A stretch of DNA of 61,426 nucleotides, counting the filler, from Dugesia japonica (taxonomy: Eukaryota): assembly GCA_001938525.1 (NCBI GenBank). It is 5 parts of 5 records of this genome, joined end to end, with 100 filler letters (N's around TTAATTAATTAA, not from the genome) between each part and the next. Parts side by side here need not be neighbours in the genome. Positions count along the whole stretch, not along the records: positions 17,494 to 25,940 come from MQRL01601505.1; 4 more parts are not named here. One strand, written 5' to 3'. Position 1 is the stretch's first letter, and every line of letters begins with the position of its first letter. Positions 19,950 to 42,160 of this stretch are shown piece after piece. A program made the position numbers and the translations under genes. A model generated the notes under the pieces. That model did no database searches and was not told the DNA's origin. It was given only the letters and a program-made list of their open reading frames with translations.

Positions 19950-22900
19950 ATCATTTGAAATTCATCTAATTTGGACATGTGTAATTTGACGGGTTAACAG
20001 TTAGCATAAATAATAACCAGACAGTCATTTGAAGCGAAGATCAAATTTAAAGTTAAATTGATAGTTGTGTTAGGGTCCCACCTGAGTTTGTGGTAGAAAA
20101 AGCACGGCTGGGGAAAAACAGCCCTCAGGGTCCCATTCAAGAATTTAATCTAAAGTTCCTATTTAGATCTTCGGTATAGAGCGGTTGACCTCCAACATTT
20201 ATTTGAGGTGCACACTTCTATACCTTTGATTTTGGGTTCATTACTTTTCCCTTATTTATAATCGTTCAATAAACCAATGAATCTTTAAAACTAATATTCA
20301 TTATCCTTTGTTTACATAAATCGAGAGCACCCAGGTCTAACCACTGGGTTGGCTCTTCTGATGTGAAGCCAAAAGCTGCTTCATCATCCTCACTATTTCA
20401 GCACGTCCACGTTTCCTGTTCTAATTATTGGGAGAGGTCTGCGATGTACTGCTCGAGAAACGCTATTTTATGTGTGAGTCTGTGTTTAGTCAGTTCTGAT
20501 AATTCGGCTTGTTTCTTTACAATCTCATCGAGCTTCTTAATGAGGCGGTTTCTTTGCNNNNNNNNNNNNNNNNNNNATTTTGTCGTTTTATGTGTCTTTC
20601 TAATAATAATTTTTGGATTATTCGATGGTACCTACGAAGACTGGTAGGGAAACGAATTTGGGGTACTAAAATAAATTACGTTAATTTAAATACAAGAATA
20701 TGAAATAATCAGTTAATCGTTTTATAATCAGTTGACTAAGGAGAATGAGCAGAGGTACAACATTTGAATAACAACTTTTATTTATTAATATTATTAATAT
20801 TGAAACACAACTAATAATGATAAGATTAAGTAGCACTTAGGATAATTTAATTGTCAATCTGAAGGGGCATTTTCGGAAGTGCCACCATCATCATTATTTC
20901 ACAACTCCCATAGAGTATTCGTTACGAACTCCCTTAACCCGGAGAAAGATGGTAGATGAGCCGACGATATTGGTATTACCCAGGGGCCGCCTCTCCACTC
21001 ATTCGTAGTCTGTAGCTCTTCGATGCTAATGGGGAGAAGGCCGTAGCAGTGTGGTAGACCTCTCGCGTTTGATCGGGTCCGTTCCACTCGTAATATGCAC
21101 GCCGCTCGGCCGCGTCCCATTCTCGTTCATTATCGGGATCTTTCTTGGACAGATTAGCATAATCCGCGAGCATCCCGGCATCTGGGTTATGGAGGTTCCC
21201 ATATCTTTTGAAGATCAACCTACCAGTGCGTCTATCCAAAAGTGTCTCCCACTTATATTTTATTTGTATACTAAAATAAAGGAAAATAACGACAATAAGT
21301 TATTAATTACATAAACCAGAATTGTCAAGCAATGTATATTTAATTCAATATACAGCGAAAACTTATCAGAAGTTATTTATCATCATCTATATCAACTGGA
21401 TACTCCAAGGGGAACATCTCAACGAAACATTGCAAGTCAGTNGCCTTCGAAGAGAATGTAAGCTAATAGCTGTTTACTCCGGACCTTACGCCTCTCCTGC
21501 CGAATCAGTTTTAATGTTTTTGACAGAAAGTCGGACATGAGTAGTCTGAATTAAAGTTAATCATTATTTTATAACGTACTGGATACTTTACTAAATGGAA
21601 GCATAAAAAGGACCTATGAAGTCAGTTCCTCGACTACAATACCGGTAAAAAGGACGCTAAAGTACATTAACCGGTGCTTGCTTGGACAAATGATTTATTT
21701 ACGATTAGTAACTGTTATTTCTAATAACAAAAATCCAAATGGTAATAATATTATAGAAAACAAATGAGAATAATCACGATCATAACACCAAAATTTAACC
21801 CATACTATGTAAGTGCTTTTCAAATCGGTAGTCGTAATTTTAACGAAACCATGAAAAATCATAGAGTTACGGATAATGTTAGCGGTTATAATGTAACATG
21901 CTGAATATATAAAGTTAATCCTTAGCTATCGACAAAATAATAATTGGTAGTAATATACCAGAACAAATATGACAATAACGCTCATTAAAAAATAATCATG
22001 TTAATAATAATAATAATATCACTAATAATAACAATTACTGCAACAATGTTAATAATAATAGGGATAGTGACTATCGTGTTCCTCATTGGTCCTTACATAA
22101 CACTCTGAGCATATAATCAGACAGCAATTTTCTTAAGTAACACATTGAGTATGCACAAATATATCTTATTAAGGCTCGTGTGAGGAATAGTTAATGAAAT
22201 TATTGATAATAGTATCCTCAAATATAACAATAAAGATAATAAACCTATCACTATTATCATGAGATTAATTTTAATTAAAGCATCATGGTAATATCCATGC
22301 CAATAGCATTAAACGACACACTCCCACTTCTTTTGACGCTAACTCCCATGTGTAACAACTGAGCAAGAAAAAAAAAGAGATGGCGTGATGTTGTCATTGC
22401 GTGCCTTAATGATGTTGTAGTCATAATCGTCGTGAAGAATTTGTGCCTGTGTGTTTAATGTTGCGATGACAGTTAAGCAAAACTATGTAATTACGTGAAT
22501 GCCACCTGTCGTATATAGGTATGTACTTTTCCAGGAGAGTGTGTGTTTCACATTGTAGAGTGGTTATGCCATCAATTGAAGTGATTTTAGGTTTGTTCGT
22601 GAATAGGGAGTTGGCTACTGTCAAGTACCGAGATCGCACTGGTGTTTCATCTGGAAGGGAAATTTTGTTTGTAATTAAAAATTGGAATAGTATTCAGATT
22701 GTCTAATAGATGTTTTTAAGCATCAGACTCTAACTGTTGAAATTTATTTGATGACATTACCGACAATATAAAATCAATGTGGTTACAATTTACTGTGTTC
22801 TGGGTGATTGCCTATCCGGTTATTGTCAACTGTAAATATCTATTTATCACAATATATGTAGAATTAAACAAAGAAGCACTTATAGAAATACTTTTATTAA
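19950..22900 (-). mobile_element. Unclassified retroelement-like remnant (possible BEL/Pao-type integrase Zn-finger, TTA-rich spacer, exon-like ORF blocks)
   Basis: LLNCHRNIKHTGTN at ~22440-22485 resembles an integrase H-x4-H-xG motif. GC-richer ORF blocks follow polypyrimidine-AG sites. A diverged relative lies at 50.7-52.2 kb. Confidence 0.45.
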
Positions 22901-24831
22901 TAAGTAAAAATTAAACACATTTACTGCAGTAATAAATATAAAATAACGCATGCTTACTCGTAAGTGAAATTTTCTTCTTGCAACGGCAATAATGATAATA
23001 GCTGAGTTCNNNNNNNNNNNNNNNNNNNNNNNNNNNNNNNNNNNNNNNNNNNNNNNNNNNNNNNNNNNNNNNNNNNNNNNNNNNNNNNNNNNNNNNNNNN
23101 TAGACCACTGAAAATGTGTGTTGATTTCGTTTCCTTTTCAAGATAATCCGATTGTTTTTCCACTATGATTTATTTCACGAAAGTTGATGTGCTAGTTTTA
23201 CGCAATTACTGACACTGATTTAATAAAAATTTTATACGTATTTCGTCTAAAATTCAGGGGGTTTTATATAATTTTCCTATGCATCTCGGCACCATCGCCA
23301 TTGGCTTCCTATTTTTAATTTGAATCTTGTTTCTGATTGGTGATGGTGCCAGTTTTCAGATTTTTCAGAGGTTTTTAGAACTTCCATTGGTAGCTATTTT
23401 TAAGTCACCATATAATTTTCTGTTCTTTGTTTTATTTTTGTTTTCTGGATTACAATTGGTGGAAATTTAAAAGTCTTCTCAAGACCCTCCTGGTAATTAT
23501 AAACTTTTCTTGTTATGAAAACCTATTGCCCTGCATTCATTTTCTTCTCAGATTTTCTTGCCCCAAGTCTCCATGATTTTTCTGAGCGGTTTTATCTTCA
23601 GAAAATCGATTTTGGCTTAATTTATTTTCTTTTTTTGTTGCAATTAATTAATTATTTTTTGATAATTAAATATTTGTTTTGATGATAATTTTCTTGTTTT
23701 TTAACAATATTTTATTTTCTTTTAATTATTGAACCTCACTTTTAGAATAATATTTCAGCCATCTGATATCCTAATTCTTGTTTCCCTTCTTAATCCGATT
23801 TTTTATTAGTTATATTTGTAATTTCCTTGCCGAACCGATGATAAATTCTAATTTGCCTCCTTCTTGTCCCCCCCTCTTTATTAGGTTCTGATTTCGGCCT
23901 TGGGTCTAGATTTTCTTCTAAAGTCGGGTGTTTCACCCCAACAGTTGATTTCAGAGAGAAAATTTTGGCAATTAGTTAAAGTTAATTTGTCCAGAGGTAA
24001 ACTTTATTTTGTTAAGATCCACTAAAATATTTTCGGTTTTATTTCAATCTATTTTGCAGATTGTAAAATAAAATCTCTTGATTAAAAAAAACCAAGTTAA
24101 GGTCCAAAATAAATCGAAATAAAATCTAAAAAACAAAGCAGAATTTTACAATCAGGGTGGTAGCTTTTAGTTAATAAAATTTTCCCATTTATTCATTGAT
24201 TTTTGAAAGTGTTGATCCAAAAACGGTGAAGGGCAACGTTTGGTTATTTTTGCAGATTGTTGGGCATCCTAGTATTTAATCATTCTGGTTATATATCCCA
24301 TTTTAGAAGATATGTAAATATATAACGCCCAACAATCTGTAAAATTTACTCATAACAATAATGAAATAAATTCTAAATAAAAAACCCATTGGTTAGGTGT
24401 AATTTATAAAAACATTAAAAAAAAATTCAATTTAAACAAACACAATTCATCTTTATTAAAGCAAAATATAAACCAATTTCAGCATAATATCAATTTATAA
24501 AAACATTAGTTAAATTATTATTCTTATTTAATTTTTTCAAAAATAAAGCAGATTAGTTAAATGTTATTTCCATTTTGTCTTGTAATAAAACTCAAAACCA
24601 ATCACCAAAATTTCAAGCCAAATTATTACATTTTTATCAAAAACATTAAAATAAATTCAATTTAATATTAATCTAAACCAATTCTCTTAACTTCTCTTCA
24701 CCTCCATTATCTTCTCTTCCACTTCTTATGACTCTTTAATTGACTCTTTTGACTCTTTAATTAACTCTTTACCTCTTTTTTACATCTTTACATCTTTAAA
24801 AATTCATCTAATTAATTACCAAATACTTAAA

Positions 24832-25910
24832 ATGGCTATTAGAATCGAAAAACTCAAAAAACAATTTTCATTTGTTGAAATTTATTTTTCAAGAATTAAA
24901 CCCGCTTCAATTGAAATTCTTAAAACAAGTTTAGATCTTATTATTAATGAAATTGTAACAGATATTAAAACAGAACAAGTAGAAACTAAACTTGAAGAAT
25001 TAGAAACTAAACTTGATAAAATTGAAAACGAATACTCGAAAGTTTCTAGTTCTGAAATAGAAATTAATATTGAAGATTCAGATTCTGATTCAGAATCAGA
25101 TCTTGAAGCTTTAATCAATAAAAAACTTGAAGCTGGTTTCGAAAAAATGAAACTGAAAACGTTAAATTTAATCTATCATTTTCCGAAAAAAGTCAAATAG
25201 TTGTAAAACAAAATATTGAAGAACAAGTTGATGAAGTTTTACAAAGACCATTTTCAAAACCAATCATTGAAGAACCTAAATCAGAAGTTGAAAATGAAAG
25301 TTCATCAGAAGTTTCAGTAGAAGCTGAAATTACTCCAGTTAAAATTCAAAAAGTTCAAAAAGAAATTCCATCAACTTCACAAAAATTAATTAAAAATAAA
25401 AAAATGGAAATCCCAAAAGGTTCCATTAAAAATAAAGTTCCAGTATTAAAACAAAAAGGATAAAGTACAATAAATCAACAAAATAAAATAACTCCTTTTA
25501 CACAATTAGAAAAAGATGTTATCAAAAGAGGAAAACTCGATAGAAAAGAATATGTTCCTTCAGAAAATGATGATGATATTGTTCAAAAGGTTTCAAGTAA
25601 ATTAAATTTCAAACAAGAGTTTTTAAGATCTTTCAATTCTCCTCCAGTTCATTCAGTTATTTTAAAACAAGAAGCAAATAAAAAAGTATTGAGTGTTTAT
25701 GAATTTTCAGAAGATACTTATAAATCTTTCGATAGAAAAAGAATTACTGAAGAAATTTATTATTGGAATGAAGTTGTAAATAAAAGCAAACAAATTAGTT
25801 TAATTAGTTATTCAAAATTGGGTAAATTATTATCAATATTAAAAACGTAATTTAATAAAAATTCTGATTTTATAAATTATTTATCTGGAAGAGAAATTCG
25901 TTATTCAATA
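24832..25910 (+). pseudogene. Homologue of the Polinton B accessory gene at 59160-60300 (coiled-coil, acidic, helical C-domain)
   Basis: Reading continues past a frameshift near 25165 and two stops to ENDDDIV..NFKQEFLRSF..VYEFSE..YYWNEVV..LISYSKLGKLLSILKT*FNKNSDFINYLSGREI, which aligns by eye to the 59.75-60.1 kb protein. Confidence 0.7.
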
Positions 25911-25940
25911 ATATATATGTATATATATATATATAAATTA

Positions 25941-40468: not shown

Positions 40469-40693
40469 TGTAATGGATGTAATGTCACATACATTGGAGA
40501 GACTTCCCGTCATCTGTGTACAAGAATTCAAGAACATCGTCGAGTTGGTAGTGGAAGTAATATTTTTGAACATTGTAAATCAGTTATCAAGATAAATAAT
40601 TTTAAAATTTTGTGCAAACACTTTAAAGATTATTGGGAGAGAGTTGTGTGAAGCATTGATGATTAGATCAATTGATCCAAAAATTAATGTTCA
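40469..40693 (+). mobile_element. Penelope-like element GIY-YIG endonuclease fragment
   Basis: CNGCNVTYIGETSRHLCTRIQEH..IFEH..FKIL..EALMIRSIDPKINVQ. Confidence 0.9.
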
Positions 40694-40899: not shown

Positions 40900-40990
40900 A
40901 TTTTTTTATAAAAATAAATGAACGCAATTTCATAAAAAATATTTATTTACTGCAATTAATTTCGATGGAATAGCCATCATTGTTAGATGA
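40900..40990 (-). repeat. Penelope pseudo-LTR fragment with degenerate hammerhead motif
   Basis: Reverse complement matches 42080-42160 (GATGG CTATT CCATC GAAA TTAATT GCAGTAAATAAAT..). Confidence 0.75.
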
Positions 40991-41564
40991 GTTTTGAGAA
41001 CTCGGATTATCAACANNNNNNNNNNNNNNNNNNNNNNNNNNNNNNNNNNNNNNNNNNNNNNNNNNNNNNNNNNNNNNNNNNNNNNNNNNNNNNNNNNNNN
41101 NNNNNNNNNNNNNNNNNNNNNNNNNNNNNNNNNNNNNNNNNNNNNNNNNNNNNNNNNNNNNNNNNNNNNNNNNATCAAAATAAAATGTATTTGTAAAGAA
41201 ATTCAAATTTTTGACAATTGTCTTATTCAGGAATTTAAATTAAAACTTCGAAAAAATAAGAAAATAATTATCTGTTATCGAAATTTCATTTAAAAACTTT
41301 CACAAAATTTCAAACCAAAACATCACTCGCTACTAAAATATTTAATTTTTAATTTTAAAAATTTTGAAACTATATAAATATTCTTTCATAAAAGAAAATT
41401 TTAATTAATCCTAAACTACACATAATTTTCGTAGCAAAATTTAATTTAATTTATTTTAATTTCTTAATTAATTTGTGGCTTACAATTTATCAAATAAGAG
41501 ATTTTTAAAAAAATAATTCCCAATCAAAGCACAAAAATTTCCACTCGCTTCAAAACCACTAACA

Positions 41565-42160
41565 GTCATCATCAAACATTTAATGATTATTAAAACAAAC
41601 TATTTATACAGTTTAAATGATTATATAATTTAAATTATTCAATATCAATAAATAATCAATAAAATAATTTAAAGAGCGATGTTGAATCCGTCAAATAAAC
41701 ATTAATTTTAGGATTTAATGCCCTTATTAACAAAGATTCACACATCACTCTCTCCCAATAATTAATGATTTTATACATTTTCTTCGATGCTCAACACGAT
41801 TACTATTTCGACTGTGCTCTTGTACTCTGGTGCAGAGATGACGGGAAGTCTCTCCGATGTATATTGCGTTACACCAATTAAATTTAAGTTGATAGACCAG
41901 ATCAGAGCAAAAGCCTAAAGGGGTTATAGATTTATTATTCAACATATTTATAACCTTATAAGATTGAGATACAATTTTGTGATAAAATTATTTTATTGAT
42001 TATTTATTGAGATTACAGTATTGAAATTTTATAATCATTTAAACTTTATAAATAGTTTGTTTTAATAATCATTAATTTCCTGATGATGACGGTTATTCCG
42101 TCNAAATTAATTGCAGTAAATAAATATTTTTTGAAATGGCGTTCATTCATTTTCATTAAA
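41565..42160 (-). mobile_element. 5'-truncated Penelope-like element with inverted pseudo-LTR
   Basis: GIY-YIG fragment SDLVYQLKFNWCNAIYIGETSRHLCTRVQEH (41945-41700), flanked by an inverted repeat pair at 41565-41660 and 41985-42095, as expected for PLE insertions. Confidence 0.88.
42072..42119 (+). ncRNA. Minimal type I hammerhead ribozyme motif in the PLE pseudo-LTR
   Basis: CTGATGA-T-GACGG-TTATT-CCGTC-(n)AAA-TTAA-TT-GCAGTAA. The n is G in the 40.96 kb copy. Stem III is a short palindrome; stem I is partly mutated. Confidence 0.7.

Follow-up and report, generated by a model that had tools for sequence, protein, structure and literature searches.

The window, by which is meant the whole stretch of 61,426 nt of Dugesia japonica DNA (assembly GCA_001938525.1) that was analysed, is a pack of five stretches, and the gene of interest, here called G, lies at the end of the second of these, on contig C601505, which stops at 25940. 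G is made up of a low-complexity acidic N-terminal half and an all-helical C-terminal domain of about 120 amino acids. The copy in the window is damaged by a frameshift near 25150-25200 and by stops at 25461 and 25848, and it breaks off into (TA)n about 30 bases before the end of the contig, so that nothing downstream of it is visible. The names G, HTH, TM, CC, GSD and U1 are working labels; the label GSD echoes a name used in adintovirus papers. Along the contig, the features of the locus are the following.

20789-23947, no strand: R1, an unrelated interspersed repeat outside the element, with a simple-repeat tail in other copies
23960-24260, no strand: fragment of R2, an unrelated non-coding repeat outside the element; no Polinton gene in any of 11 fetched loci
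24248-24265, no strand: outer 18-bp arm, the mirror of 24327-24344 (17 of 18 positions complementary); its outer part overlaps the end of R2
24266-24326, no strand: conserved asymmetric core, the putative palindrome centre and hairpin loop; found in either orientation among copies; fold z -6.0 with arms
24327-24831, plus strand: inner arm and non-coding leader, from the core to G; common to sister copies from about 24400 on
24832-25926, plus strand: gene G, a Polinton accessory gene, broken and cut at its 3' side; assigned by homology and fold models of intact relatives
25912-25940, no strand: (TA)n run and contig end; the remainder of the element is out of view

In the window the element starts near 24250. 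The earlier note on this DNA had remarked that the region before G is free of recognisable Polinton core genes, and this is borne out for 23101-24831, in which none was found. It had also offered, among other options, that of a satellite or non-autonomous derivative; this option fits the evidence presented below, but the reason given for it fails, the empty 1.6 kb being mostly unrelated repeat DNA. Two other identities for this DNA were considered and rejected: 23101-23947 is not a Polinton terminal repeat but part of the separate repeat of about 3 kb, and 23960-24260 is not a Polinton intergenic region, since a Polinton gene is absent from 11 of 11 loci. The interval 23986-24485 is reproduced without any difference in contigs of two studies, one of which may be the source of the assembly. 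R1, which also occurs at L009-L020, is about 3 kb long and has no long frame; R2, which also occurs at L212-L222, is abundant, and Polinton genes are absent from its vicinity. Elsewhere in the window, the start of the fourth stretch (40904-42160) contains inverted repeats of 77-111 bp that are 87-88% identical, and pieces related to these are present at the end of the third stretch (40471-40691).

A distant homologue of G is found near 59.7 kb, in a decayed Polinton with the following features.

54445-57879, plus strand: ZnF and pPolB of this Polinton, broken (DNA_pol_B_2, E 2e-11)
59290-60301, plus strand: distant G homologue, located on a different contig and flanked by a small hydrophobic-helix gene on one side and the packaging ATPase on the other
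60442-61094, minus strand: A32-like packaging ATPase of this Polinton, broken (Pox_A32, E 0.008)

Because the two homologues lie on different contigs, their nearness in the window carries no meaning. The homology itself, which had been proposed from a set of shared motifs, is confirmed for the C-terminal parts. The quoted motifs are present in the sequence at both genes, and the products of 25464-25910 and 59688-60107 align with a BLASTP E value of 3e-11 (29% identity over 112 amino acids) and, in a masked pairwise alignment in which low complexity is masked and X is placed at stops, with an E value of 3e-15. The Smith-Waterman score of this pair is 148, which is equalled by none of 5,000 shuffles (shuffle maximum 66), and a profile made without the 59.7-kb row recovers the 59.7-kb protein at E 2e-10. 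Homology of the acidic N-terminal halves is unsupported, since 55 of 2,000 shuffles reach the score of these halves.

Fold models of intact relatives of G consist of an all-helical domain (pLDDT 77.5 and 93.2). The earlier suggestion that this domain is of the DUF3102 kind (PF11300) finds no backing in the profile, whose best match, in one of 39 and one of 37 proteins, scores 16.3 bits and lies below the cut-off of 24.4 bits, or in a search of the genome, which produced no match with one candidate scored. Among Foldseek matches to viral folds, DUF3102 entries occupy five of the top 34 rows, all of them weak (E 0.12-2.1), and for the better model they occupy two of the top 50 rows, with all fold hints at E 0.12 or worse. 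Chains of ParB, KorB, SopB or VirB make up eight of the top 19 PDB fold rows for one model, with weak scores (Z 3.5-4.2) and an rmsd of 4.0-4.7 over 72-79 residues; they make up none of the top 50 PDB rows for the second model, and a Foldseek comparison of G with the PDB returns nothing at E 0.001 or better. G shares with DUF3102 and the ParB-type HTH an all-helical domain, an LG..L..LK-like helix and weak structural matches, and is unlike them in having no significant sequence or structure match. The predicted folds provide a weak hint of a link to DUF3102, membership of which is unsupported. A DNA-binding role is plausible for G; the prediction is of a helical protein that binds DNA and has an acidic tail.

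A profile search yields 33 distant relatives of G elsewhere, none of them named, and a cluster look-up of 10 of the 33 supplies no useful name. Protein searches for relatives, which were limited in length and therefore constitute weak evidence, found none; searches of viral_contigs, metagenome_contigs, phages, PDB sequences and Rfam were without any find; no PHROGs family is common to more than two of 37 G members; and matches in the Atlas are hypothetical proteins or HTH leads that score below 0.9. In the roughly one quarter that was covered of each of two RNA runs, there are 28 and 26 partial reads, all less than 95% alike. The likeness of G to the PZ or PM gene of vertebrate Mavericks is one of position, beside the ATPase (PMC8097293).

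Within the genome the G domain is abundant, with at least 150 matches (150 of 150 scored, from 1,364 candidates), and the type represented at 59.7 kb has at least 151 (from 150 scored of 1,060 candidates). In the analysis of these copies, a locus is termed “short” if it contains the unit composed of end, pPolB, CC, TM, HTH, G and core, and “full” if it has capsid-module, ATPase or integrase neighbours. In full Polintons G adjoins the packaging ATPase gene, near the genes for the capsid (DJR-like, E 4e-17) and the integrase (rve, E 2e-7). A tree of 53 G domains, the root of which is unreliable and the rows of which do not include the 59.7-kb protein, separates 19 short and seven unlabelled rows from 26 full rows and one unlabelled row with a support of 93/100, and the window copy falls on the short side. 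The earlier note had held that the novelty would be reduced if all copies were located in ordinary Polintons; this is true of the 59.7-kb family (10 of 10 fetched loci) and for 26 of the 53 rows of the tree, but not for the group to which the window copy belongs. Some full Polintons also have, across the ATPase, a second and shorter G-like gene, U1 (L040:2573-3175; profile E 4e-7, with high composition bias).

The layout of the short unit is a Polinton end, ZnF-pPolB, CC, TM and HTH, followed by G pointing back, the leader and the core, and it can be read in L022, L023, L025, L145 and L238. Three of these copies (L022, L023 and L025), which are 79-86% identical to the window, have three small genes and ZnF-pPolB on the opposite strand past G. 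The description of the window gene as stand-alone is consequently unsupported, since the contig end hides its 3' side and its sisters continue to more genes and pPolB, and its identification as a stand-alone gene or a MITE was rejected because the sister copies run on into HTH, TM, CC and pPolB. The pPolB of the sister copies was located by tblastn, with queries that included the 56.9-kb frame (DNA_pol_B_2); the window remnant has none. An AGTA-type Polinton end lies upstream of pPolB, about 300 nt beyond a marker position (a median of 306 over the 10 loci, out of 31, that allowed the measurement), and AGTA ends are also present in L058, L066 and L238. The position L025:9274 was rejected as a right end, since the L025 copy is truncated and others extend about 300 nt to the AGTA-type end. 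The conserved core, at the far side of G, is about 60 nt long, and the size of the whole unit is estimated from L025 and L145 at 6.7-7.4 kb.

No gene for a capsid protein (major or minor), ATPase, protease or integrase was found inside the unit when it was queried with this genome's own Polinton proteins, although CC or TM might conceivably supply one of these functions in a highly diverged form. Among 114 marker-bearing loci, which are partly redundant, 12 from six contigs also match capsid, protease or integrase queries; a reading of their maps suggests that these matches lie outside the unit, represent a retroelement integrase, or reflect one false marker match. The flanks (up to 1.5 kb) of the CC-TM-HTH block contain a capsid-module gene in none of 30 fetched loci. 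In the pPolB tree, from which three unlabelled rows were removed, short and full rows are intermixed, with seven changes among 29 rows, and a second pPolB type is found in both layouts. Given this mixing and the second type, either the replication modules of two full lineages have come to be joined to the CC-TM-HTH-G-core block, or the block has arisen from those lineages on more than one occasion. G and HTH are found in full Polintons of this genome as well.

The core search gave 34 genomic matches, all 34 of which were scored and 30 fetched, and the set used here (n=35) drops L182, which was taken as the junction of L089, and L088, which has no flank, and adds the window. The core is oriented one way in 19 copies and the other way in 16 (binomial p 0.74), and copies whose flanks are unrelated show both orientations too. 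The inverted arms that close the core are 6 to 109 bp long; the median stem score is 11 at cores against 6 at 143 random positions, and core and arms folded together give z values of -4.2 to -7.6 in five examples. By a crude measure, the similarity of the core among copies has a median of 78%, compared with 61% for the next 100 nt, and the core of the window is 60% identical to that of L025. The arm sequences differ between copies. For the outer arm of the window, its own inner arm is a better match than that of any of 29 other copies; among the 22 copies with arms of at least 12 bp, window included, the copy's own inner arm is best or tied best in only 11, and in 13 of the 35 copies the arms are shorter than 12 bp.

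Beyond the core, the flank is mirrored in 19 of the 35 copies, unrelated in 13, too short in two, and occupied by another Polinton's integrase gene in one; the mirrored class is set by a threshold, so that L161 is ambiguous and L148, although it has a mirrored gene 381 nt away, is placed in the unrelated class. The 15 non-mirrored flanks that were compared have no common neighbour, what they share being confined to arm sequence and a single common repeat, and an unfolded parental continuation is present in none of 33 informative flanks. Of 55 short loci, 7 have inverted duplications and 6 have converging pPolB pieces; among 44 full loci neither feature is seen (p 0.016 and p 0.032, respectively). 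One locus, L290, is a palindrome of about 1 kb with arms of 328 nt that are 99% identical. The arms of L142, L144 and L156 are nearer to each other than to any other copy, and those of L002, L003, L021 and L088 are not each other's nearest; misassembly may account for the 100% identical pieces of L144. The assembly consists of 648,594 contigs, and no contig contains a whole end-to-end copy.

The case in which both ends of an insertion can be seen was pieced together from two contigs, L145 and L326. In L145 the order is end, pPolB, CC, HTH and core, then the start of the leader of G and other repeats; in L326 it is end and pPolB. The two flank one site in the integrase gene of another Polinton, at which the 6 bp GAGATG are duplicated, and their outer flanks are the two halves of that gene, with the reading frame continuing across. 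Out of 68-69 loci, each arm finds its best match in the other, at 91-92%, with a third copy, L328, only slightly behind for either arm (90.9-91.1%). Ordinary Polintons have a single pPolB. Here one target duplication encloses two ends that both bear pPolB, which points to an inverted dimer whose insertion would have been carried out by an integrase encoded outside the unit. Among 37 outer ends there is one other 6-bp pair, L133 with L330, whose 6-bp flanks are reverse complements (TATCAA), perhaps by chance. Several elements lie inside or beside genes of another Polinton type (L025, L145 with L326, L238, L021, L242 and L110), twice in the integrase gene of that type, at sites separated by about 130 bp, and in further cases at its pPolB and protease; there may be a preference for that Polinton type as a target.

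In the explanation that we consider likely, the gene in the window is a decayed remnant, from the centre-side end, of an element that derives from Polintons, has its own pPolB and no detected capsid, ATPase, protease or integrase gene, and in its complete state would be a palindromic satellite of about 14 kb mobilised by full Polintons. Mirroring of the whole unit about a fixed centre of two orientations appears to be a feature of the family, as judged from fragments. Integration and packaging may take place in trans. The unit has a precise end with a target duplication and no integrase of its own, and its pPolB is common to full elements; integration in trans has been suggested earlier for integrase-less Polinton-like elements (PMC11296320).

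In the mechanism that we propose, protein-primed strand displacement would start at one end of a palindromic duplex and release a self-complementary strand. This strand would snap back into a hairpin of about 7 kb with the core as its loop, and, if both strands did so, flip and flop loops would be generated, which would account for both core orientations. A new round of initiation at the open end, with copying through the loop, would restore an inverted dimer with two identical Polinton ends. The integrase of the helper would then insert the dimer, and the helper capsid may package it; the length of the dimer (about 13.5-15 kb) is near that of a full element and would suit packaging, the full element in C604146 exceeding 12 kb, with its capsid gene running off the contig. 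The integrated palindrome would subsequently lose parts of one arm and leave remnants such as the window copy. One-sided arm loss from long palindromes has been documented in yeast (PMC4689423) and would explain the succession of core, short arm and jump. Alternatively, copies like that in the window might arise if a hairpin monomer opened and was end-joined to a break, which would look similar.

The origin of the mirrored structures can also be explained without a palindromic replicon. They may post-date integration, in which case a one-armed, capsid-less Polinton derivative with a short interrupted inverted repeat would have been folded back at a host replication fork by template switching of the ODIRA type, and one arm later deleted. 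ODIRA does act at short interrupted inverted repeats, where it gives rise to inverted dimers that afterwards undergo deletions in one arm (PMC4689423); short arms adjoin most of the cores, and some arms are 95-100% identical within a copy as compared with 89-94% to the best other copy. We nevertheless regard this explanation as unlikely, because the 6-bp duplication around two pPolB-bearing ends implies that the insertion was already palindromic at integration, because both orientations of the core are present even with unrelated flanks, because the parental continuation that a one-armed progenitor would have is found in 0 of 33 informative flanks, and because full Polintons have inverted duplications in 0 of 44 loci.

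The short loci might instead be pieces of a full-length Polinton family of the ordinary kind, one in which an invertible spacer lies upstream of G, with the capsid module lost from view through fragmented assembly and nesting. In favour of this are the presence of G and HTH in full Polintons, the pPolB types held in common with full elements, and the location of several units inside or beside other Polintons. For an internal spacer, however, one expects a neighbour that is constant, and no such neighbour is seen; the G genes of short units occupy their own side of the tree; and the flanks of the CC-TM-HTH block, over at most 1.5 kb, lack a capsid-module gene in 30 of 30 loci. This makes the explanation quite improbable in our judgement. 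Very improbable is the remaining one, that palindromes and flipped cores are artefacts of short-read assembly at hairpin-prone, AT-rich sequence. In its favour, the assembly is gappy, L144 contains duplicated arm pieces that are 100% identical, and L290 ends at matching positions on both sides; but contigs of two studies contain exactly the junction that is present in the window, differences of 2-16% are seen between many arms, the target duplication is in register within the integrase frame, and no such structures are present in the full Polintons of the same assembly.

Given a palindromic satellite, a more far-reaching proposal can be entertained as a tentative possibility that we consider somewhat doubtful at present: that these elements are satellite viruses of animal Polintons which replicate themselves, have a self-complementary genome and form a lineage that has endured. 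The replicon would be a hairpin of about 7 kb with a conserved flip/flop loop; its polymerase-and-end module would have been swapped between two helper lineages; it would be integrated and packaged as a helper-sized inverted dimer; and G and HTH would have been kept as origin-binding or helper-regulating proteins. To our knowledge, replication of Polintons outside the chromosome has been inferred and never observed.

The individual parts of this scheme have precedents, and what appears to be new is a polymerase-bearing form with a conserved two-way core. The working model is provided by hairpin deletion derivatives of pGKL1, reportedly described by Kikuchi et al. in 1985 (a work cited in PMC4443254), which are said to be protein-primed, to have one protein-capped and one hairpin end, and to interconvert with an inverted dimer. 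Those are a cytoplasmic laboratory derivative of a yeast linear plasmid, whereas the present family is chromosomally integrated and has at least 34 cores and two pPolB types. Autonomous Polintons or Mavericks (PMC8097293, PMC11296320) are similar in having pPolB by an AGT-type end, a 6-bp target duplication (seen here in one case) and, in this genome, G and HTH in common with the unit; the unit differs in that no integrase, capsid, ATPase or protease was seen in it, and, where autonomous Polintons have short terminal repeats, the whole unit of about 7 kb is apparently mirrored about a conserved core. AAV snapback subgenomes (PMC8235507) are likewise self-complementary partial genomes that keep one end and some genes and need a complete virus, but they are made afresh in each infection with varied fold points and have no polymerase gene, whereas here the putative fold point is one core conserved across diverged copies. 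The palindromes of Halocafeteria virophages and PLVs (10.64898/2026.07.28.741278) also belong to Polinton-like elements and have been proposed to act as replication hairpins; they are terminal, short (52 nt in subtype 5) and mostly unaccompanied by pPolB, while the elements considered here have an internal centre and pPolB. No description of palindromic or hairpin-centred Polintons was found in the titles and beginnings of abstracts that were searched, and passages of 10.64898/2026.10.13.758929 and PMC6431247 contain nothing on palindromic Polintons.

The gene to which attention was originally drawn is an ordinary Polinton accessory gene, and the interest of the locus resides in the element around it. 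If the proposed explanation is true, then these elements constitute fossil evidence for replication by strand displacement and snap-back and for integration in trans, and animal Polintons have satellites of their own. Such elements would have been missed by a mining pipeline that demanded integrase and pPolB on the same contig, as one did (PMC8097293), and by short-read assembly, which breaks palindromes.

The survey of full Polintons in this genome also produced several separate observations. At least four gene orders coexist (L130 with L202; L063; L040; L235). One full family has no G, yet has the same pPolB type as the short unit, and in another HTH is placed between the end and pPolB. In L040:1299-2591 a phospholipase-A2-like domain (PF08398, E 4e-7) is fused N-terminally to the frame of the integrase. 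A number of Polinton ends (L097-L125, L058, L066, L238 and L244) have a terminal hairpin, in which the outer 30 bp or so are inverted again 100-300 bp inside, and the arms of these hairpins co-vary from copy to copy.
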